Shown here one piece after another: positions 5,688-35,686 of a stretch of DNA of 42,855 nucleotides. Every line of letters begins with the position of its first letter. The stretch's first letter is position 1. The notes under the pieces were generated by a model, which had not been told where the DNA came from, did no database searches, and worked only from the letters and a program-made list of their open reading frames with translations. The position numbers and the translations under genes are program-made. Source of the stretch: a virus; the UHGV virus genome UHGV-0159603. One strand, given 5' to 3'.

Positions 5688-5764
5688 TTACCGTTGAGGT
5701 AATAATTATGCGTATCTGGTTTGATGTCAATAGATATGAGTTAAAAAAATTACCCGTTAGGTAA
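5688..5764. promoter_or_regulatory. Leftward early promoter/operator region (OL-like) with two TTACC-N5-GGTAA sites (5688..5702, 5750..5764)
   Basis: TTACCGTTGAGGTAA and TTACCCGTTAGGTAA between repressor terminator and first leftward gene. Confidence 0.55.
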
Positions 5765-5821: not shown

Positions 5822-6406
5822 TTATTGTTTGTTTTTTTCGTTCTGGTTGATGACAAATTCAATGTAACTTTCGATCTTTGCTTTCTCGGTTTCGGGTAAC
5901 AATGCGTAGCGCGAGCGGTCATAGTTGATAGTCGCAGGGTCGTGCGGGTGAATCAGTAATTCATAGCCATGACGCCCGAATGCGGATGCAACATTCTCCA
6001 GGGTGGAAATGGAAACGCTGACCTCATTGTTTAACAGGCGGCTGATTGTCACCTGGGCGACGCCGGATGCGCGGTGAAGTTTTCCCTGTGTTGAAAGGTC
6101 GCGGCTTTCGCTCATCCAGCGTTCCAGGTTGTGAGCCGCCAGCTGACCAATGTCGCTTGGTCCGACAGGCTGAAAACCCTCCTGAGAAAGCGAGCGATCG
6201 ATATCAAGCCAGTTACGTGGTTTATTGGCGACAGCTTCAATTTTTCGCGCAACCTGGTCGCCGATAACCTTCTTGCCAAGAGCCCAGCGGTTTACCAGAT
6301 TTGCCTGAGTTCCAAGTTTTTCAGCCATCCGCGTCTGAACACCATTGAATTCACGGTCGATCAAGTCGTTGAGATTTTGCCTGCGGACGTCCTGGATACT
6401 TTTCAT
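5822..6406 (-). CDS. Prophage repressor (CI-like), tandem HTH domains, no recognisable S24 peptidase autocleavage domain
   Basis: Two XRE-like HTH segments; divergent from Cro-like gene across an operator-rich 154-bp intergenic region; no GDSM-type serine motif. Confidence 0.6.
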   Translation of the reverse strand: MKSIQDVRRQNLNDLIDREFNGVQTRMAEKLGTQANLVNRWALGKKVIGDQVARKIEAVANKPRNWLDIDRSLSQEGFQPVGPSDIGQLAAHNLERWMSESRDLSTQGKLHRASGVAQVTISRLLNNEVSVSISTLENVASAFGRHGYELLIHPHDPATINYDRSRYALLPETEKAKIESYIEFVINQNEKNKQ

Positions 6407-6461: not shown

Positions 6462-6524
6462 TTACCCAACAGGTAAATGCACCTCATGGGTAACTATCCT
6501 TGATTTTTGTTACCTTATAGGTGA
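6462..6524. promoter_or_regulatory. Divergent promoter/operator region (OR-like) with three dyad sites: 6462..6476 TTACCCAACAGGTAA, 6479..6493 GCACCTCATGGGTAA, 6510..6524 TTACCTTATAGGTGA
   Basis: Three copies of the TTACC-N5-GGTAA dyad between divergent repressor and cro-like genes, mirroring lambdoid OR1-3. Confidence 0.65.
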
Positions 6525-6560: not shown

Positions 6561-6791
6561 ATGAGCGATAACGGACATTTCGATTTCAAAAAGCACTGGC
6601 TTGCACTTACTCCGGATGAGCGTGAAGCCTTCGCACAGGAAGCCGGAACGACGAGTCACTATATCCAGACTCACTTAACAGGTAAGCGCAAAATGCCAGG
6701 TAAGGTATTGATGAATGGGCTTTTTAAAGCCTGTAAATCAAGACAATGGCTGCGCTCAAAAGCAGAACTGGCATACTTCTTCTACTCATGA
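6561..6791 (+). CDS. Cro-like / YdaS-like HTH regulator
   Basis: 76 aa, divergent from repressor, HTH-like segment AGTTSHYIQTHLTGKRKMP. Confidence 0.5.
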   Translation: MSDNGHFDFKKHWLALTPDEREAFAQEAGTTSHYIQTHLTGKRKMPGKVLMNGLFKACKSRQWLRSKAELAYFFYS

Positions 6792-6813
6792 TATCCAGCC
6801 ACAACCCTCTGTA

Positions 6814-6836
6814 GACCGCCATCCGGCGGTCTTTTC
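6814..6836 (+). terminator. Rho-independent terminator after cro-like gene (tR1-like)
   Basis: GACCGCC-ATCC-GGCGGTC followed by TTTT. Confidence 0.6.
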
Positions 6837-6846
6837 ATATCTATTC

Positions 6847-6861
6847 GCACCTCAAAGGTAA
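6847..6861. promoter_or_regulatory. Dyad motif GCACC-TCAAA-GGTAA
   Basis: Member of the dispersed TTACC-N5-GGTAA family, between the tR1-like terminator and the next gene. Confidence 0.4.
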
Positions 6862-6941
6862 TAAAAAACCAAATCTGGTTGATCTTTTTTTTGTGTCAGC
6901 ACAAAATGACCGTAATCCCAATACTAATAACAGGGCTTACC

Positions 6942-8792: not shown

Positions 8793-8869
8793 TTACCTGG
8801 AGGGTAATAAAATGTTCTAATCTCTATTGATTTCATGTCTTATGTGGTTTTTAATTACCTAAGGGGTAA
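8793..8869. promoter_or_regulatory. Two dyad sites (8793..8807 TTACCTGGAGGGTAA; 8855..8869 TTACCTAAGGGGTAA) upstream of nin-like gene block
   Basis: TTACC-N5-GGTAA family; second copy overlaps the RBS of the 8873 gene. Confidence 0.5.
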
Positions 8870-12604: not shown

Positions 12605-12645
12605 GAGTAGATTATGCATGATGAATTTGATGGGTTTTGAATACT

Positions 12646-12671
12646 GCCGCCAACTATGGCGGCTTTATTTT
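12646..12671 (+). terminator. Rho-independent terminator after nin-like block
   Basis: GCCGCC-AACTAT-GGCGGC then TTTATTTT. Confidence 0.65.
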
Positions 12672-12682
12672 GCATGGTACTA

Positions 12683-12715
12683 TTACCACAACGGTAACAA
12701 TTACCAGGGTGGTTA
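12683..12715. promoter_or_regulatory. Tandem dyad sites TTACCACAACGGTAA (12683..12697) and TTACCAGGGTGGTTA (12701..12715) before terminase genes
   Basis: TTACC-N5-GGTAA family; second copy overlaps RBS/start of small terminase gene. Confidence 0.5.
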
Positions 12716-13311
12716 TGATGCCTGCTGAACCTAAAACCTATAAACGCAAATCAACGCAATTTAAGCCACTAACCGCAATGCAGGAGGCTTATTGCCAGTC
12801 ATACATCAAAACGCCTGAAAACCAGACTCAGGCAGCGATTAACGCAGGATTCTCCCCAAATACAGCGGCAGTTAAAGCCAGTGTCATGATGCGCGATGAA
12901 CGCATTCAAAAACGGATTGCCGAGTTGATGGAGGAGCGCAACAAACGAATGCGCGTCAGTGCCGATTACGTTCTCATGCGCCTGGTGGAGATCGACCAGA
13001 TGGACGTGATCGACATCCTCAACGACGATGGGAGCCTTAAGCCAATCCGCGAGTGGCCGAAAATCTGGCGCACTACGCTTAGTGGCTTTGATCTGTCATC
13101 GACCATCATGAACATGAACGAGGATTCGATAGAGACAATCCTCAAAAAAATTAAATGGCCTGACAAGGTGAAGAACCTCGAACTGATTGGTAAGCACGTC
13201 GACGTCAACGCATTCAAAGAACGCCTGGATGTTAATGTGAATGTGACAATTGCTGATCGCATAGCAGCAGCCAGGAAGCGACTCAAAGAACGTCAGGATG
13301 GCAATCAGTGA
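12715..13311 (+). CDS. Terminase small subunit
   Basis: LTAMQEAYCQSYIKTPENQTQAAINAGFSPNTAAVKAS matches small-terminase HTH pattern; start ATG 12715/12718. Confidence 0.7.
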   Translation: MMPAEPKTYKRKSTQFKPLTAMQEAYCQSYIKTPENQTQAAINAGFSPNTAAVKASVMMRDERIQKRIAELMEERNKRMRVSADYVLMRLVEIDQMDVIDILNDDGSLKPIREWPKIWRTTLSGFDLSSTIMNMNEDSIETILKKIKWPDKVKNLELIGKHVDVNAFKERLDVNVNVTIADRIAAARKRLKERQDGNQ

Positions 13312-14783
13312 CAGATGCAGCGTTATCTCCTGAAGAGCAGTTGATCGAGGATATTGCAGGGTTCACTCACGATCCGCTTGGCTATGCCCTCTATGCGTTC
13401 CCGTGGGGGGAAGATGGGACTGAACTGGCACATGCCGCCGGTCCACGTCAGTGGCAGGCTGATGCGTTCCGAGAGATACGTGATCACCTGCAGAATCCAG
13501 AGACGCGCTATCAGCCGCTTATGCTGGCACGCGCTTCGGGTCACGGTATTGGTAAATCCGCATTCATCTCAATGCTGATCAACTGGGGCATGTCCACTTG
13601 CGAGGATTGTAAGGTTGTGGTGACCGCCAACACCGACAACCAGCTACGAACGAAGACCTGGCCGGAAATTATCAAGTGGTCGAACCTTGCTATCACGAAA
13701 GACTGGTTTACCTGTACCGCTACCGCGATGTACAGCAATGACCCTGGGCACGACAAGCGGTGGCGAGCTGACGCAATCCCCTGGTCTGAGCACAACACTG
13801 AGGCATTCGCCGGATTACACAATGAGCGCAAACGCATCATCGTGGTATTCGATGAAGCGTCGAACATTGCGGATCTGGTGTGGGAAGTTGCCGAGGGTGC
13901 GCTAACGGACGAAGACACTGAGATTATCTGGGTGGCGTTCGGAAACCCTACACGTAACACCGGGCGTTTTCGCGAATGTTTCCGCAAATATAAACACCGC
14001 TGGAAAACTGCGCAGATTGACAGCCGGACGGTGGAAGGCACTAACAAACAGCAGTTGCAGAAATGGGTTGATGACTACGGGGAAGACAGCGACTTCGTTA
14101 AAATCCGTGTGCGCGGCATATTCCCTGATGCATCTGAATTGCAGTTTATCCCTACCGGCCTTACTGACGAGGCAATGAAACGGGTGGTCACCGCTGCGCA
14201 GGTTGCACATGCTCCGGTGATAATCGGTGTTGACCCGGCATATTCAGGCGTTGATGACGCGGTGATATACCTGCGGCAGGGGCTACACAGTAAGGTGCTG
14301 TGGACTGGCAACAAGACTACCGACGATCTGATTATGGCGAAGCGTATCGCTGACTTTGAAGACCAGTATCAGGCTGACGCGGTGTTCATCGACTTCGGTT
14401 ACGGAACCGGTTTGAAGTCAATCGGTGATGGCTGGGGACGTACATGGCAACTTGTTCCGTTCGGTGGTGCGTCAACTGACCCTCAGATGCTCAACAAGCG
14501 CGGGGAGATGTTCAACTCATGCAAGACATGGCTGAGGTTGGGCGGGATGCTGGATGACCAGGAAACAGCGGACGATCTGTCGGCGGCAGAGTACAAAGTT
14601 CGCGTGGACGGTAAAATCGTTATCGAACCGAAGGAAGATATCAAAGAACGACTTGGGCGTTCGCCTGGTAAAGGAGATGCGCTACTGCTGACGTTTGCTT
14701 TCCCGGTGTCAAAGCGCCTGCGACTTCCCGGGCAGCAGAACCAGCAAGGCAAGGCGCTTACCGAGTACGATCCATATGCTTAG
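13308..14783 (+). CDS. Terminase large subunit
   Basis: Walker A-like SGHGIGKS, ATPase plus nuclease domain architecture, 491 aa. Confidence 0.85.
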   Translation: MTDAALSPEEQLIEDIAGFTHDPLGYALYAFPWGEDGTELAHAAGPRQWQADAFREIRDHLQNPETRYQPLMLARASGHGIGKSAFISMLINWGMSTCEDCKVVVTANTDNQLRTKTWPEIIKWSNLAITKDWFTCTATAMYSNDPGHDKRWRADAIPWSEHNTEAFAGLHNERKRIIVVFDEASNIADLVWEVAEGALTDEDTEIIWVAFGNPTRNTGRFRECFRKYKHRWKTAQIDSRTVEGTNKQQLQKWVDDYGEDSDFVKIRVRGIFPDASELQFIPTGLTDEAMKRVVTAAQVAHAPVIIGVDPAYSGVDDAVIYLRQGLHSKVLWTGNKTTDDLIMAKRIADFEDQYQADAVFIDFGYGTGLKSIGDGWGRTWQLVPFGGASTDPQMLNKRGEMFNSCKTWLRLGGMLDDQETADDLSAAEYKVRVDGKIVIEPKEDIKERLGRSPGKGDALLLTFAFPVSKRLRLPGQQNQQGKALTEYDPYA

Positions 14784-15598
14784 TCTTTATTTTTATCCTC
14801 GAAACCTGATAATCCAGATAGAACACCAAAGTTATTAAAAACGTTTGGCTTACCAGATTTTAATCCGGATAAGTTGTGTTGCTCCAAAAAGTTGCTAATT
14901 GTTTGGCCGTTGCCAAGTGCAAGGCTTTTTATTTGAGATTTTTCAGGGTATTTGAGTTTGTATTCGTCGAAATCATTTTGGAGGGTCTTATATGCCTCAT
15001 TCATTCTTCCAAGAGTTTCCGATATCTCTTTTAATGAATGATTTAGAGCTGCTAACTGAGCACTGGCGGATCTCAATTCGTCATCTTTAGCTTTCAACTC
15101 GGCAGTCAATTCCCCCATACTATTCTTTGATCGAATAATCTCTTCTTTCATCTCTTGGATGTCTTTTTCCGCGCCAGTCTTAACTTTGTCGTATGTAACA
15201 TCTTTTTTAGCCAATAACCTCTGCAGTCTTGTTTCACGCTGGATTTTTCTTGCCTTCAGGTGATTTTCGATTGAGTCATTATTATCAAGAGGCTTTGCTT
15301 GCCATACGTTAATGATATTGTTTACCCATGGTAATAGGCAGCAGATAGCAATTACAGATAAGCATGGATAAAACATAACAGTTTTCCATGTGCTGTTATC
15401 TGAGATATATGAAATTTTATCTATTATGTTTGATTTGCTAAAAAATAGATAAAGAATTGATTTCCAGTTGAAGGCGCACCAGGACATAACAAAAGCACCA
15501 AGCACAGGGTTTTTGGCTCGATTCACGGCAGTATTGGCAGTAGATAAAAACAGCTCTTTGAACGATTCAAACATGCTAATTACCTTGAAGTTTTTCAT
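14780..15598 (-). CDS. AT-rich moron: membrane protein with N-terminal TM helices and C-terminal coiled coil, unknown function
   Basis: Opposite strand to flanking late genes, about 37% GC, own terminator upstream and dyad site at RBS; ATG 15598. Confidence 0.6.
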   Translation of the reverse strand: MKNFKVISMFESFKELFLSTANTAVNRAKNPVLGAFVMSWCAFNWKSILYLFFSKSNIIDKISYISDNSTWKTVMFYPCLSVIAICCLLPWVNNIINVWQAKPLDNNDSIENHLKARKIQRETRLQRLLAKKDVTYDKVKTGAEKDIQEMKEEIIRSKNSMGELTAELKAKDDELRSASAQLAALNHSLKEISETLGRMNEAYKTLQNDFDEYKLKYPEKSQIKSLALGNGQTISNFLEQHNLSGLKSGKPNVFNNFGVLSGLSGFEDKNKD

Positions 15599-15602
15599 GA
15601 TT

Positions 15603-15617
15603 ATACCTTTAAGGTAA
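15603..15617. promoter_or_regulatory. Dyad site ATACC-TTTAA-GGTAA overlapping the moron RBS
   Basis: TTACC-N5-GGTAA family; 5 nt upstream of ATG 15598. Confidence 0.45.
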
Positions 15618-15631
15618 TTTGCGGTCATCAA

Positions 15632-15657
15632 GCAAAAAAATGCCCGGCGAACCGGGC
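15632..15657 (-). terminator. Rho-independent terminator downstream of tRNA
   Basis: GCCCGG-TTCG-CCGGGC followed by T7 run on minus strand. Confidence 0.65.
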
Positions 15658-15820
15658 GAACTGGAAGCAATGAGTTATGCCTTCCGTGGCTGCACGGGTT
15701 TACAGCATGAAGTCATCGCAATGGCGTCCTGCTGTAAAAAGGGCGGTGATAGTCCTTCAAGGGAAACTATCACCGCCAAGCACCTGGAACTTCTGGCATC
15801 ACGGTCCTTAGGCGTGATTC

Positions 15821-15897
15821 TGGCGTGGTATGCAGGATTCGAACCTGCGACCAACCGCTTAGAAGGCGGTTGCTCTGTCCAACTGAGCTAATGCCAC
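15821..15897 (-). tRNA. tRNA-Arg (anticodon UCU), phage-encoded
   Basis: Minus-strand cloverleaf: D-arm GCTCAGTTGGACAGAGC, anticodon loop CTTCTAA, T-arm GCAGGTTCGAATCCTGC, 3-prime CCA encoded; one C-A mismatch in acceptor stem. Confidence 0.8.
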
Positions 15898-16219
15898 AAC
15901 GCTGAGAGCACTTAGCCTGTTAAGGCGCCACACTTTGTCGCGGCTCCATAAATGCTCTCATCGTTGTACCCTCGTCTCTTCCGAGGCGTCACACCAAATC
16001 GCCGGGATGGTGAATCCCCGTGCGCGGAATAAAACCGCTCGACTTGCACATTCCGGCTACCTGGTTCGTTTGCCCGAGCAAGGGAGGGTGCCCCTTAAAC
16101 GTATCCAGACCGCTATCGTCGCATGTGCCATACGCCGTACTGCTCAAAATAAAAGCTCACTCCACCTGTTCAATTTAACGACAAGCCAGTCAGGTTAATA
16201 ACCGGAATGAACCCTTTAC

Positions 16220-16234
16220 TTACCTGAAAGGTAA
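16220..16234. promoter_or_regulatory. Dyad site TTACCTGAAAGGTAA upstream of head-gene operon
   Basis: TTACC-N5-GGTAA family, about 90 bp upstream of ATG 16325. Confidence 0.45.
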
Positions 16235-16324
16235 TAATTTGTGCGTTAAATGTCAACTATCTACGATAAATAAATCATATGTGGTTAAATTGGTAATGAT
16301 TTAATTGCGTACGGAGTCATTGAT

Positions 16325-16531
16325 ATGTGCATGGGTAGCTCACCATCAGTGCCTGCAACACCAGAAGTTCAGGCAGCACCACAGGAGCAGGATGCCGCCG
16401 TTGTTGATGCCCGCGACGAAGAAACACGTCGCCGTCGCGCTGCTGCTGGTCGTAGTTCTACGCTGCTTACCGGTTCTCAGGGCGACACATCAACCGCTAA
16501 TACCAGCGGTAAAACGCTGCTTGGTCAGTAA
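16325..16531 (+). CDS. Small low-complexity hypothetical protein preceding portal gene
   Basis: RBS context GGAGTCATTGA repeated before this ORF and before the portal gene. Confidence 0.4.
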   Translation: MCMGSSPSVPATPEVQAAPQEQDAAVVDARDEETRRRRAAAGRSSTLLTGSQGDTSTANTSGKTLLGQ

Positions 16532-16545
16532 CCGGAGTCATTGAA

Positions 16546-18225
16546 ATGGCGGAAACAACTAAAGAGCGATTGAACAAACAGTTCGCACAACTTGAAAGCG
16601 AGCGTCAGTCGTTCGAGCCGCACTGGCGCGAGTTGAGTGATTACATCAACCCGCGTGGTTCCCGCTTTCTGACTTCTGAGGTCAACCGTAACGATCGACG
16701 CAATACACGCATTATTGATTCGACCGGGACTATGGCGGCGCGCACTCTCGCCAGCGGCATGATGTCAGGCATCACAAGCCCCGCCCGTCCGTGGTTTCGC
16801 CTGGCTACGCCAGATCCTGAAATGATGGATTATGGCCCTGTTAAGTTGTGGCTTGAGGCGGTGCAGAACCGCATGAACGATATGTTCAATAAGTCGAATC
16901 TCTACCAGTCTCTTCCGCAGTTATACGGAAGCCTCGGCACATACAGCACTGGTGCAATGGCGGTGCTGGAGGATGACGAGGACATCATTCGCACAATGCC
17001 ATTCCCTATAGGCAGTTACTACCTGGCTAACTCACCTCGTGGCAGTGTGGACACCTGTTTCCGCAAGTTCTCTATGACTGTTCGTCAGCTTGTTCAGGAG
17101 TTCGGGCTAAATAACGTCAGCGAATCCGTAAAAAGCATGTGGGAAAGCGGCACCTACGAGAAGTGGATTGAAGTGATGCATTCGGTTTACCCGAACATTG
17201 ACCGCGATACATCGAAGCTGGATAGCAAGAACAAGCCATTCAAATCGGTTTATTACGAGGTTGGTGGCGATAACGACAAGTTGTTGCGTGAGTCCGGATT
17301 CGATGAGTTTCCAATTATGGCTCCGCGCTGGGAAGTTAACGGCGAAGATGTTTATGGATCATCATGCCCGGGTATGCTGGCGCTTGGACCTGTTAAGGCA
17401 TTGCAGCTTCTCCAGAAGCGCAAGTCGCAGTTGATTGATAAAGCCACCAATCCGCCGATGGTTGCTCCGACTTCCCTCAAGAATCAGCGCGCCTCCCTTC
17501 TTCCTGGCGACATCACGTATATCGATCAGATTACTGGTCAGGATGGCTTCAGGCCTGCTTATCTGGTTAACCCCAGTACAGCAGATTTGGTGGCAGACAT
17601 TCAGGACACCCGTCAAATCATTAACAGCGCCTACTTTGTCGATCTGTTCATGATGTTGCAGAACATCAATACCCGCTCGATGCCTGTTGAAGCGGTAATC
17701 GAAATGAAAGAAGAAAAACTTCTGATGTTGGGGCCGGTTCTGGAGCGTCTGAACGACGAATGTCTTAATCCTCTCATTGACCGCGCTTTCTCGATGATGG
17801 TGCGTAAAAACATGCTGCCGCCACCGCCTGACGCGATGGAAGGTATGCCCCTGAAGGTCGAATACATTTCCGTCATGGCTCAGGCGCAGAAGTCTATCGG
17901 CCTGTCCAGTCTGGCGTCTACGGTCAACTTCATTGGTCAACTTGCGCAAGCGAAACCAGAAGCTCTCGACAAACTCAACGTTGATCAGGCGATCGATGCA
18001 TTCGCTGATATGTCCGGAGTGTCTCCAACCGTCATTGTTCCGCAGGAACAGGTTGAGCAGGCTCGCCAGCAACGGGCACAGCAGCAACAGCAGCAACAAA
18101 TGATGGCGATGGGGATGGCGGCGGCACAGGGTGCCAAGACGCTAAGCGAAGCTAAAACTTCGGATCCGAGTGTTTTGTCAGCTATGGCGAATGCAGTTAG
18201 TGGTCAGGGTGGGCAATCACAATGA
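16546..18225 (+). CDS. Portal (head-to-tail connector) protein, T7 gp8-like
   Basis: C-terminal QQQQQQQMMAMGMAAAQGA tail resembles T7 gp8 C-terminus; 559 aa; position after terminase. Confidence 0.7.
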   Translation: MAETTKERLNKQFAQLESERQSFEPHWRELSDYINPRGSRFLTSEVNRNDRRNTRIIDSTGTMAARTLASGMMSGITSPARPWFRLATPDPEMMDYGPVKLWLEAVQNRMNDMFNKSNLYQSLPQLYGSLGTYSTGAMAVLEDDEDIIRTMPFPIGSYYLANSPRGSVDTCFRKFSMTVRQLVQEFGLNNVSESVKSMWESGTYEKWIEVMHSVYPNIDRDTSKLDSKNKPFKSVYYEVGGDNDKLLRESGFDEFPIMAPRWEVNGEDVYGSSCPGMLALGPVKALQLLQKRKSQLIDKATNPPMVAPTSLKNQRASLLPGDITYIDQITGQDGFRPAYLVNPSTADLVADIQDTRQIINSAYFVDLFMMLQNINTRSMPVEAVIEMKEEKLLMLGPVLERLNDECLNPLIDRAFSMMVRKNMLPPPPDAMEGMPLKVEYISVMAQAQKSIGLSSLASTVNFIGQLAQAKPEALDKLNVDQAIDAFADMSGVSPTVIVPQEQVEQARQQRAQQQQQQQMMAMGMAAAQGAKTLSEAKTSDPSVLSAMANAVSGQGGQSQ

Positions 18226-32312: not shown

Positions 32313-32726
32313 ATGAAGGAATTATTGCTGTTATCGGTATTTTTGATATACGCTTGCTCGACATCCTATGATGTTTATGACGGTGTTGATAAGGCATATT
32401 GCGACAAAGTTAAAATGGATTTTTCTCTTGCCAAGACGGCGAAGGATAGTTGTATTGATCACTACGTCAAGACTTATACCAAGCCAGCCTCATCGGCATC
32501 TGATATTGCTGAAGGTGCTGTGTTTGAGTGTAACAAGGTGATATCCATCGCAGCGAGTTCTTCATACGATGCTGCTGTATGTGCAATGGCTGAAAGAAAC
32601 GGCATGTCAGTGCAAAAAATTAATAGCATGATAAGCAGTAATGACGAAGCCAAAATAAGAACTGATATCAGCTCGGTGAAAAAAGATGCCATGAACAGAG
32701 TTGTAAAATATCAGTCATCTTTATAA
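32313..32726 (+). CDS. Small exported protein, possible lipoprotein
   Basis: N-terminal signal-like LLLLSVFLIYAC followed by Cys; AAGGAA RBS. Confidence 0.5.
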   Translation: MKELLLLSVFLIYACSTSYDVYDGVDKAYCDKVKMDFSLAKTAKDSCIDHYVKTYTKPASSASDIAEGAVFECNKVISIAASSSYDAAVCAMAERNGMSVQKINSMISSNDEAKIRTDISSVKKDAMNRVVKYQSSL

Positions 32727-33018: not shown

Positions 33019-33885
33019 CTATTCTTTTTTGCTATTTCTTTGATATATATTTCTTCCATTTTTGGTAACACGAATAACGTGCCCCCTGGATTCTACTTTG
33101 TTATTTGTTGCTTTATATACTTCAAAATCAAACCATGATATATAACTTATTTCGTCAATAGACACCATGATCTCAAGTCCTGGCACTTTCTTTCTGCTAA
33201 TTCCTCTTATTGCTGCAGTCCGCTTGACCTGTATTTCTCCTGGATAAGCATTAGTGAATGTGACAGATAAGTTGTCTTTGTTCCTGTATCCTGACATTAA
33301 AGGAACAAAAGATATGTGCTGATGCGGAGCCTGATTTTCCGTTGGTTCACCAGAACCATTTATTATTCCAACATACACTTTGTTTGATGATAAAGTAATC
33401 AGCATTGGTCGTTTAGGATCCGATTCAATAGCATCAAGCAATAGTAAGTCTAAAGAACCTTGCGAGTAAGTTTTTCGCAGTACTCTGGCCTTCATTGCCT
33501 CTGTTTTTTGCTCGTAAATATCACGTTTATAAAAACAACCAAGAAGAAAATCTTTCACCCACACAACAGACACATAACACAAAGAGAAGCAAATGGATGT
33601 GGCTGAGAGAAGAAGCAGCCACATGTAAATTCTATCTGTTTCTGGTTTTGACGTTACATTAAAAGTTTCCACCATATCGTGAACTAGGTGAAAATCAGGA
33701 TATTTATATTTTATAAATGCGGCAATTATTACCGAAGCAACAAGGCAATATGTACCTAATGCAGCTACTTTCATATAAAGAAGCTGGCCTTCATGTCGGT
33801 ATAAACGGAAATAATGATACTGGTTAGCGGTTATCATAATATAACCACTAACCAGAATGGGGATAATTAGAAGAGCTAACAACAC
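33019..33885 (-). CDS. AT-rich moron: membrane protein with N-terminal TM helices and roughly 170-aa C-terminal soluble domain, unknown function
   Basis: About 35% GC versus about 50% surroundings; opposite strand to virion genes; start GTG 33885 or ATG 33837. Confidence 0.55.
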   Translation of the reverse strand: MLLALLIIPILVSGYIMITANQYHYFRLYRHEGQLLYMKVAALGTYCLVASVIIAAFIKYKYPDFHLVHDMVETFNVTSKPETDRIYMWLLLLSATSICFSLCYVSVVWVKDFLLGCFYKRDIYEQKTEAMKARVLRKTYSQGSLDLLLLDAIESDPKRPMLITLSSNKVYVGIINGSGEPTENQAPHQHISFVPLMSGYRNKDNLSVTFTNAYPGEIQVKRTAAIRGISRKKVPGLEIMVSIDEISYISWFDFEVYKATNNKVESRGHVIRVTKNGRNIYQRNSKKE

Positions 33886-34120: not shown

Positions 34121-34135
34121 TTACCTTTAAGGTAA
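34121..34135. promoter_or_regulatory. Dyad site TTACCTTTAAGGTAA upstream of the 69-aa/membrane-protein operon
   Basis: TTACC-N5-GGTAA family, 27 nt upstream of ATG 34094. Confidence 0.45.
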
Positions 34136-35187: not shown

Positions 35188-35202
35188 TTACCGCAAAGGT
35201 AA
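35188..35202. promoter_or_regulatory. Dyad site TTACCGCAAAGGTAA
   Basis: TTACC-N5-GGTAA family, in leader region upstream of Bro-N gene. Confidence 0.4.
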
Positions 35203-35567: not shown

Positions 35568-35582
35568 TCACCTGAAAGGTAA
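35568..35582. promoter_or_regulatory. Dyad site TCACCTGAAAGGTAA in divergent region before tailspike gene
   Basis: TTACC-N5-GGTAA family. Confidence 0.4.
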
Positions 35583-35686
35583 TATCTGTTCGTATTTATG
35601 GGTTATCTATCCATATGTGGTTTTTCAGGTAATAGAATAACCGGATATGCGGCGCAACGGGTGCTGCGACTATCTGGAGATTTAAC

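Follow-up and report, generated by a model that had tools for sequence, protein, structure and literature searches.

What is a single reverse-strand gene doing among the packaging and head genes of a temperate phage? In the viral genome UHGV-0159603, a stretch of 42,855 nucleotides (nt) that we analyzed whole and call the window, an AT-rich open reading frame (ORF) and a tRNA gene face leftward between the large terminase gene (terL) and the portal gene. The initial annotation of this locus took the two for a pair: a moron with its own terminator, joined to a tRNA and encoding a candidate exclusion or abortive-infection factor expressed from the lysogen. Our analysis separates them. The gene lies in an exchangeable cassette with a copy of the predicted phage repressor operator in its promoter, and the cassette appears to have moved into unrelated phages. 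We regard the gene as a new, uncharacterized member of a familiar class of prophage accessory membrane genes, and we tentatively favor, with somewhat less than even confidence, a role for its product in phage-versus-phage conflict of the superinfection-exclusion or abortive-infection type.

An exchangeable cassette between terL and the portal gene

The window represents an Escherichia coli prophage of the phiV10/epsilon15 type (Uetakevirus), and its positions 14700-16550 are 100% identical to the chromosome of E. coli TCM3e1. The slot in question is defined by the following elements:

12637-14783: small terminase gene (Pfam Terminase_2) and large terminase gene
13308-14783, plus strand: large terminase gene (terL), from the ORF and RefSeq annotation, with a TAG stop at 14781-14783
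14784-15633, minus strand: swappable cargo cassette of a promoter with operator, a Shine-Dalgarno sequence and one ORF, delimited by a sharp drop in identity at both borders
15821-15897, minus strand: phage tRNA-Arg(UCU), 77 nt with an encoded CCA end (ARAGORN and Rfam)
16546: start of the portal gene (Head-tail_con, E = 1.6e-187)

The gap between terL and the portal gene spans 1.76 kb and houses both the tRNA and the reverse gene. Outside the reverse ORF, 14700-16550 is 98% identical to phiV10, phiv142-3, TL-2011b and others. Identity to the sister prophages L004, phiV10 and TL-2011b runs at 92-100% up to 14783, falls to 10-50% inside the slot and returns to 92-100% from about 15634. Because the drop is confined to 14784-15633, this segment is the cargo, and the tRNA and two hairpins next to it belong to the conserved backbone. 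In phiV10 and epsilon15 the same position holds a small reverse-strand PF13876 gene (N4 gp49/Sf6 gp66), and in TL-2011b an unrelated reverse gene of 115 amino acids; the cassette gene is therefore non-essential. Additionally, at least ten allele classes with differing C-termini lie between near-identical flanks. The reverse-strand insert first noticed in the packaging-to-head gene order is thus a discrete accessory unit, with borders at 14784 and about 15633 by the identity profile.

Several of its properties are those expected of a moron in the sense of Hendrix and Juhala. Its presence is patchy with sharp borders, it has at the sequence level a predicted promoter that is kept with the gene, and its base composition differs from that of the surrounding genome: the G+C (GC) content of the ORF is 0.369 (36.9%, in agreement with the 37% estimated at first), and 300-nt windows fall at 0.35-0.39 against 0.50-0.55 in the flanks. 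A downstream terminator of its own is missing. We found no convincing intrinsic terminator after the ORF, just a weak hairpin of 5 base pairs (bp) inside terL at 14662-14646, and the strong terminator of the locus sits upstream of the cassette promoter.

The open reverse frame at 14780-15598 corresponds to RefSeq WP_000787773.1, a hypothetical protein of 272 amino acids. We read the gene as follows:

14780-15574, minus strand: cassette gene, most likely 264 amino acids, stop at 14780-14782, PHROG 4780
15575-15598, minus strand: in-frame extension of 8 codons in the 272-residue model, probably untranslated
15583-15586, minus strand: Shine-Dalgarno sequence AAGG, 8 nt 5' of the ATG at 15574, read from the sequence

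The length of 272 residues in the initial annotation matches the open and annotated frame, but the likely start is the second ATG, at 15574. All 45 aligned homologs begin at query Met9, and a Shine-Dalgarno sequence precedes the second ATG, with AAAGG or AAGG kept at that position in other alleles. The upstream ATG (15598) starts only 2 nt past the predicted -10 and is lineage-specific, reading CATG here and CAGA in other alleles. For these reasons the product is most likely the 264-residue protein. At the other end the stop overlaps that of terL, as first described: the TAG at 14781-14783 and the reverse TAA at 14782-14780 share 2 nt in the TTAG at 14780-14783.

A predicted repressor operator in the cassette promoter

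Upstream of the gene, a predicted promoter and a palindrome overlap:

15600-15628, minus strand: sigma70-like cassette promoter, ATGACC, 17 nt, TATAAT (promoter scan, 10/12 consensus matches)
15604-15616, no strand assigned: operator-like palindrome TACCTTAAAGGTA (extended ATTACCTTAAAGGTAT), covering the promoter spacer and the first two bases of the -10

The form (A/G)TGAC(C/T)-17-TAnAAT/TAnACT is conserved, with its distance to the ATG constant at 25-27 nt, in nearly all of 32 distinct upstream sequences that cover every carrier type; a Klebsiella lambdoid copy (L008) has GTCACC. The palindrome recurs through the window. We drew its consensus from the epsilon15 GenBank feature table, in which ATTACCTAAAAGGTAAT, the counterpart of the copy at 16221, is annotated as a repressor binding site, together with our own counts. 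The window contains 11 exact TACC-N5-GGTA sites where 0.37 would be expected (at most 2 in any of 100 shuffles) and, when up to one mismatch is allowed, 14 copies of the stricter TACCTNNNAGGTA, where 0.64 would be expected. Nearly all copies are located at promoters; they and the regulatory genes among them are:

137-149: operator before the integrase gene
5689-5701 and 5751-5763: two operators left of the repressor gene
5825-6406, minus strand: gene for a helix-turn-helix repressor of 194 amino acids
6463-6475 and 6511-6523: two operators between the repressor gene and the cro-like gene
6561-6788: cro-like gene
6848-6860, 8794-8806 and 8856-8868: operators before replication genes
12684-12696: operator before the small terminase gene (terS)
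16221-16233: operator before gp3 and the portal gene
34122-34134, 35189-35201 and 35569-35581: operators around the Bro-N anti-repressor gene

With a copy of the ATTACC-N5-GGTAAT palindrome over its promoter, the cassette falls into the predicted operator regulon of the Uetakevirus immunity repressor. The dispersed TACC-N5-GGTA layout resembles the many-operator immunity of the P1 C1 type and is unlike the two-site lambda pattern. In the related phage ZX5, overexpression of a repressor whose sequence is reported to be identical to that of phiV10 blocks lytic gene transcription (PMC9782041). We also considered an MqsA-type ACCT-N3-AGGT site, and dropped it because the motif is spread over the whole genome at promoters of the phage, a distribution that favors the phage repressor.

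No operator site accompanies the cargo genes that phiV10 and TL-2011b carry instead, and the operator is therefore a feature of this cassette. Of the distinct upstream sequences, 21 of 22 from epsilon15-like carriers keep both of its arms intact, compared to 4 of 10 from other carriers (Fisher p = 0.0014, on sequences that are not independent), and the -35 and -10 are retained in nearly all upstream sequences. This pattern implies that the arms are selected only where the repressor is present. We infer that in the home phage the resident repressor controls the cassette promoter, probably shutting it. Since a near-perfect operator copy overlaps the -10, the expression from the lysogen that was first proposed is doubtful there.

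These data bear on an alternative account, in line with the initial annotation, in which the gene is a classical moron, constitutively expressed in the lysogen and protecting it by exclusion or abortive infection, with a palindrome that is merely part of the promoter or weakly occupied. The near-consensus -10 and the insulating terminator upstream fit such autonomous expression, and in lambdoid prophages, outside epsilon15-like phages, expression of the gene has to do without the cognate repressor. Since the repressor gene's own predicted promoter likewise has an operator over its -10 (the site at 6463), geometry alone is no proof of silencing. Nevertheless, the cassette site matches the perfect palindrome TTACCTTAAAGGTAA at 14 of 15 positions, which places it among the best copies in the genome, and the arms that are so consistently kept in epsilon15-like carriers are lost in 6 of 10 sequences from others. 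We think it unlikely that the gene is simply constitutive in the lysogen of its home phage.

Two further observations concern the other operators. The motif ATGTGGTT occurs three times, always on the plus strand (8842-8849, 16279-16286 and 35615-35622), each time 46-58 nt downstream of an operator and just 5' of a rightward operon (the 8873 ORF, gp3/portal and the 35687 tail gene). This placement suggests a second shared promoter element, the count itself being insignificant (3 against 1.4 expected). Additionally, the annotated start of terS (TTG 12637, 224 amino acids) puts the operator at 12684-12696 inside the coding region. The terS annotated in TL-2011b has 197 amino acids and starts about 22 nt past the equivalent operator; the true start in the window is probably near 12709-12718.

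The tRNA as a separate element

ARAGORN identifies a single tRNA in the window, a tRNA-Arg with anticodon tct at position 35, and Rfam RF00005 scores 15821-15897 at 68.9 bits against a gathering score of 29 (E = 2e-14), which confirms the tRNA-Arg(UCU) that had been read on the minus strand. This part of the finding is already known. The tRNA is annotated as tRNA-Arg in phiv142-3 and the O157 typing phages 9 and 10, where the stretch is about 98% identical, as well as in SPN9TCW and SPC32H/N, where the whole matched stretch is only about 82% identical. It is present in phiV10, TL-2011b and L004 and absent from epsilon15 and a Salmonella locus (L012), and it is a backbone feature of the E. coli phiV10-type lineage.

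The proposed pairing of tRNA and gene did not survive comparison. In phiV10 and TL-2011b the tRNA sits with other cargo, and the gene family often occurs without it. We identified relatives of the gene at 69 IMG/VR loci. Of these, 58 are epsilon15-like and carry it in the terL-portal slot; 42 of the 58 have the tRNA and 16 have none. Members without an accompanying tRNA also occur in Salmonella and among lambdoid, P2-like and phage-plasmid carriers. Codon usage gave the same answer. The prophage as a whole uses AGA at 7.5 per 1000 codons, which is several times the E. coli average, with peak counts in tail and early genes. The cassette gene has 4 AGA codons, which is unexceptional for this phage, and we dropped the idea that tRNA and moron depend on one another through AGA. 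The tRNA is instead a general phage asset, which would supply decoding capacity for AGA codons enriched throughout the phage.

The elements around the tRNA suggest how it is expressed:

15634-15657, minus strand: intrinsic terminator GCCCGG-TTCG-CCGGGC then T7 (hairpin 15657-15642 and T-run)
15736-15777, minus strand: first terminator-like hairpin 3' of the tRNA, a 14-bp stem (15777-15742) then CTTTTT
15898-16220, minus strand: conserved non-coding stretch of about 320 nt that separates the tRNA from its predicted leftward promoter, with 98-100% identity across the E. coli relatives
16221-16256, minus strand: predicted leftward promoter for the tRNA, TTGACA 16256-16251, 17 nt, TACCTT 16233-16228, read from the sequence

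On the minus strand the order is tRNA, 14-bp hairpin, GC hairpin with T7, cassette promoter and gene. The terminator assigned to the gene at 15632-15657 is thus a real GC hairpin with a T-run, but it is not the gene's own, as it lies 5' of the gene's promoter. Hairpin and T-run are part of the backbone that is conserved from 15634 onward, and would end the tRNA transcript and insulate the cassette promoter. Most epsilon15-like carriers have a T-run hairpin 5' of the -35; in several copies that left them none is evident.

The stretch at 15898-16220 has no match in Rfam and is probably the leader of the tRNA transcript; epsilon15, which has no tRNA, retains flanking parts of the 15898-16256 region. 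The putative leftward promoter at 16221-16256 was not called by the promoter scan. One arm of the operator at 16221-16233 doubles as the -10 of this promoter, and directly next to the other arm is a TAATAAT directed toward the gp3/portal genes. The same promoter/operator arrangement is found in epsilon15, with the site annotated 'repressor'. The tRNA would thus be transcribed leftward from an operator-bearing promoter near 16256, and its transcript ended by the two hairpins. Taken together, the tRNA and the gene cassette appear to be two independent elements in one accessory slot.

The operator at 16221-16233 is thus shared by two back-to-back predicted promoters, one leftward to the tRNA and one rightward (GGTAATAAT) to gp3 and the portal gene. 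A forward ORF of 90 amino acids (15619-15891, plus strand) runs antisense to the tRNA and both terminator hairpins. In phiV10 (gp04) and TL-2011b (gp24) hypothetical proteins are annotated in the corresponding region, and these are probably spurious calls.

A conserved membrane module with a variable stalk

The 264-residue protein divides into two parts, encoded as follows:

15095-15574, minus strand: conserved N-terminal membrane module, residues 1-160 (conservation, profile search, model and hydropathy), whose parts include an amphipathic helix (2-19), a short loop helix and a basic juxtamembrane stalk
15440-15511, minus strand: kinked transmembrane helix 1 (TM1), residues 22-45
15305-15385, minus strand: transmembrane helix 2 (TM2), residues 64-90
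14783-15094, minus strand: variable distal coiled coil and disordered tail, residues 161-264

We modeled the protein with AlphaFold2 and a 147-sequence alignment, reaching a predicted local distance difference test score (pLDDT) of 84; this run replaced one on 46 close homologs (pLDDT 65). The model has a helix at 2-19, a kinked helix at 23-45, a short helix at 50-60, an unbroken helix at 63-208 and a disordered tail. Confidence is highest in the long helix (pLDDT 90-98) and drops below 55 past residue 210. Heptad a/d positions are occupied at 6-8 of 8 over residues 134-197, and this, with the single modeled helix, bears out the long coiled coil predicted at first. The two N-terminal transmembrane helices fared less evenly: a helical hairpin is modeled and TM2 is strongly hydrophobic (Kyte-Doolittle peak 2.15), but TM1 is marginal, being Trp-rich with an internal Lys and a Kyte-Doolittle value of about 1.2.

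Conservation follows the same division. In blocks of 20 residues, the fraction matching the majority residue is 0.74-0.93 up to residue 160 and 0.21-0.36 beyond it, with 0.43 in the last four residues, and alignments of alleles from the same slot extend no further than residues 159-243. The near-invariant residues R19, P23, G26, F28, W32, N36, W37, P70 and P82 cluster in the membrane part. Ten Lys/Arg residues lie within 40 residues after TM2, so by the positive-inside rule the stalk should be cytoplasmic. Hence the bulk of the protein is predicted to lie in the cytoplasm, with about 18 residues in the periplasm. The conserved helical hairpin would anchor the protein in the inner membrane, and a helix of about 145 residues, presumably forming a coiled-coil oligomer, would project into the cytoplasm.

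Homology searches

The protein matches PHROG 4780, a family of unknown function, over its full length (E = 3.2e-137, residues 9-272 of the annotated frame on profile positions 1-267 of 275). With the N-terminal module as a profile, we retrieved 2,492 clusters at 50% identity (E <= 1e-3), 374 of them at E <= 1e-10. Among the matches listed, the module is almost always N-terminal and total lengths are mostly 220-400 amino acids. A search with the variable C-terminal 104 residues alone returned 3 fragments.

Other databases yielded coiled coils. No Pfam family, including SLATT and the other effector families with two transmembrane helices, reaches its cut-off for the query, and 54 diverse members matched at E <= 1e-3 only coiled-coil families; no catalytic domain was detected in these 54. 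With the same set of proteins, PADLOC-DB v2 gave only the coiled-coil arms of DndD, PbeC, LmuB and JetC, at E values of 2e-5 or weaker for the query and 3.9e-7 among the diverse members. We rejected the Pfam, NCBIfam and PADLOC matches to SMC, DndD, LmuB, JetC and similar proteins as homology, because they are coiled-coil cross-matches. A profile search against PDB sequences gave no match. WP_000787773.1 is not mentioned in the literature we searched, and the accessible part of the DefensePredictor paper supplement does not list it.

PHROG matches, distribution and orientation gave no sign of a virion or assembly role. PHROG matches to head and tail families are coiled-coil noise (E > 4e-3). 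The gene is dispensable, being absent from phiV10 and TL-2011b, and it runs antisense to the late genes; we therefore exclude a component of this kind.

Export to other phages

Between near-identical flanks in E. coli and Salmonella, the family occurs as alleles of 49-75% identity with differing C-termini, and members at just 27-29% identity hold the same slot in divergent epsilon15-like prophages from metagenomes. Outside this home slot, in gene-called loci, it is a solo gene antisense to its neighbors. Its carriers include Klebsiella lambdoid prophages, where it lies in the nin region; an SSU5-like phage-plasmid, where it lies between the tail-fibre genes and parA; and a P2/186-like Pantoea prophage, where it lies between gpA and the portal gene. 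The gpA-portal position of P2 is the old/tin hotspot, which holds many anti-phage systems (PMC9122126).

The lambdoid carriers retain a trace of the gene's origin. In them a truncated 3' end of an epsilon15-type terL, 26-150 codons long and sometimes frameshifted, abuts the stop of the gene as in the window. Because this remnant accompanies the gene, the cassette appears to have been exported from epsilon15-like phages. A second kind of hitch-hiking flank is seen in one non-epsilon15 carrier (L084), where the backbone piece between tRNA and promoter, equivalent to window 15660-15800, came along at 6607-6897.

Another possible role is that of an early accessory protein for the phage's own lytic growth, either in counter-defense against membrane-associated immunity or as a membrane tether for replication or assembly like phi29 p16.7. 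On this account the operator makes sense, as it puts the gene in a predicted regulon with early, integrase, anti-repressor and packaging promoters. Members of only 27-29% identity keep the slot in divergent epsilon15-like phages, and the alternative cargo PF13876, by its Pfam name (N4 Gp49/Sf6 gene 66), is also found in phage N4. A member on a podovirus-like contig (L089 7001-7717; 51% identity, N-terminal module) lies between scaffold-like and capsid-like genes and is co-oriented with them, unlike the antisense copies in the other carriers examined. The gene is nonetheless dispensable, since phiV10 and TL-2011b, deposited as phage genomes, do without it, and no nucleic-acid-binding or other domain was detected in its product. 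Moreover, an intact, promoter-bearing solo gene persists in unrelated phage types, often with a decayed operator, which argues for a function independent of epsilon15-type machinery. A helper of lytic growth therefore seems to us an improbable explanation.

A benefit to the host is more improbable still. The protein could be a lysogenic-conversion factor acting on the cell envelope, in stress tolerance, colonization or surface properties, with no relation to phages. The gene is carried by a temperate phage and encodes a membrane protein, its GC content is low and its presence patchy (a DNA-detectable relative in about 61 of 5,426 complete E. coli genomes), and there are known morons with roles of this kind, such as neaT in the moron site of a P2-like phage (PMC3573123). 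Yet the protein is predicted to expose only some 18 residues to the periplasm, and a mosaic C-terminus and hotspot sites are more typical of conflict genes. Lysogeny by ZX5 altered no tested host phenotype (PMC9782041), which is a weak point since ZX5 matches only the backbone from 15635 and apparently holds a different cargo.

Two further sets of sequences deserve mention. The records NZ_CP079771.1 and NZ_CP079768.1 are 41,027-bp 'plasmids' of duck E. coli strains with the terL-cassette-tRNA-portal stretch that the chromosomes of these strains also contain, and they look like an excised circular phage genome assembled as a replicon. Within the window, two more AT-rich ORFs lie between the tail genes and the Bro-N anti-repressor gene, and may be further accessory cargo:

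32313-32726, plus strand: GC 0.39, PHROG 8691, no Pfam match
33019-33885, minus strand: GC 0.36, PHROG 3630, no Pfam match; downstream of the operator-bearing promoter at 34122

Possible function of the cassette protein

Of the initial annotation, the observed features all exist, with three details corrected (protein length, terminator and strength of the transmembrane helices). Its interpretation stands insofar as the insert is accessory, non-essential and not part of the virion; the tRNA pairing and the gene's own terminator do not.

A role in conflict between phages fits best because the gene occupies hotspot sites as a solo antisense unit, its promoter travels with it, it survives in unrelated phages, and it combines a conserved N-terminus with a swapped C-terminus. 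The anatomy, mobility, family structure and operator enrichment come directly from the sequence, and the role, like repressor binding, expression timing, topology and oligomerization, is inferred. The conserved membrane module would act as effector, with specificity or sensing left to the exchangeable distal stalk and tail. Held by the immunity repressor, the promoter would stay off or low in lysogens of the home phage and fire on infection or induction. In exported lambdoid copies, where the cognate repressor is absent and the operator partly decayed, expression would be constitutive. In its most specific form, the proposal is of a new kind of single-protein conflict device: a membrane-hairpin effector with an exchangeable coiled-coil tip, wired to the repressor, deployed in lytic mode and turned into a constitutive defense after export. 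We hold this full version to be possible but doubtful. If true, the device would guard the lytic investment against superinfecting or co-resident phages.

Several points weigh against a conflict role. There is no homology to validated defense or exclusion proteins in PADLOC, Pfam or NCBIfam; homology to lambda SieB is ruled out by an hhalign probability of 2.2%, and Foldseek returned nothing at E < 1 against PDB and BFVD. Classical protection of the lysogen is impossible for this gene if its promoter is silenced there by the repressor. The comparison of operator decay uses phylogenetically non-independent sequences, TM1 is only marginally hydrophobic, which weakens the predicted membrane topology, and the fast divergence of the coiled coil may mean weak constraint and not an arms race. 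Finally, the relatives at 27-29% identity in the same slot fit an old, phage-intrinsic accessory function equally well.

Whatever its role, the gene represents a large, mostly phage-borne family without a Pfam entry, structural relative or assigned function, which occupies recognized accessory or defense hotspots in at least four temperate-phage types. The terL remnant is a rare directional record of gene transfer between phage lineages, and the operator in the cassette promoter suggests that not all 'morons' are lysogen-expressed and that some may follow the lytic switch. The conserved-N/swappable-C layout suits clean domain-swap work, and the value of the gene as an experimental target is raised by the very large unannotated family, the directional footprint and the operator-bearing promoter.

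Comparison with known systems

Among exclusion proteins, P22 SieA has a similar setting. Like the cassette protein, it is a small inner-membrane protein encoded by a single prophage gene among late genes, without a partner and in several divergent types. SieA has 162-164 amino acids and three predicted transmembrane helices, contains no coiled coil and is expressed in the lysogen (PMC10883804). In a comparison of Pfam assignments the two show no similarity, having no family in common. SieB of lambda and P22 likewise has hydrophobic N-terminal segments followed by a cytoplasmic part and is encoded by a single antisense prophage gene, but it is without the long coiled coil and the conserved-N/variable-C organization.

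CapRel SJ46 is a prophage-borne fused sensor-effector with a conserved N-terminal effector, an enzymatic toxin domain, and a swapped C-terminus. The cassette protein is like it in organization alone, as its conserved part is a membrane hairpin and stalk with no catalytic domain. Virulent phages offer another comparison. The early membrane protein p16.7 of phi29 consists of a transmembrane segment, a coiled coil and a C-terminal domain, and T4 Imm and Sp exclude secondary infection during lytic growth. All three resemble a membrane protein of the predicted lytic mode; they are not mobile cassettes, and no sequence relationship to them is expected.

The P2 gpA-gpQ hotspot, with old, tin and many validated systems, provides a parallel in genome position. 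Its known cargo differs from the cassette protein in that no PADLOC model, HEC candidates included, matches beyond the coiled coil, and the argument from location is one of guilt by association. In a P2/186-like prophage, a distant member of the family (P0188, 514 amino acids), which matches the N-terminal module at E = 3e-19, occupies precisely the position between Phage_GPA and the portal gene, and the terL-portal slot itself behaves like this hotspot, with sharp borders and many alternative cargoes.

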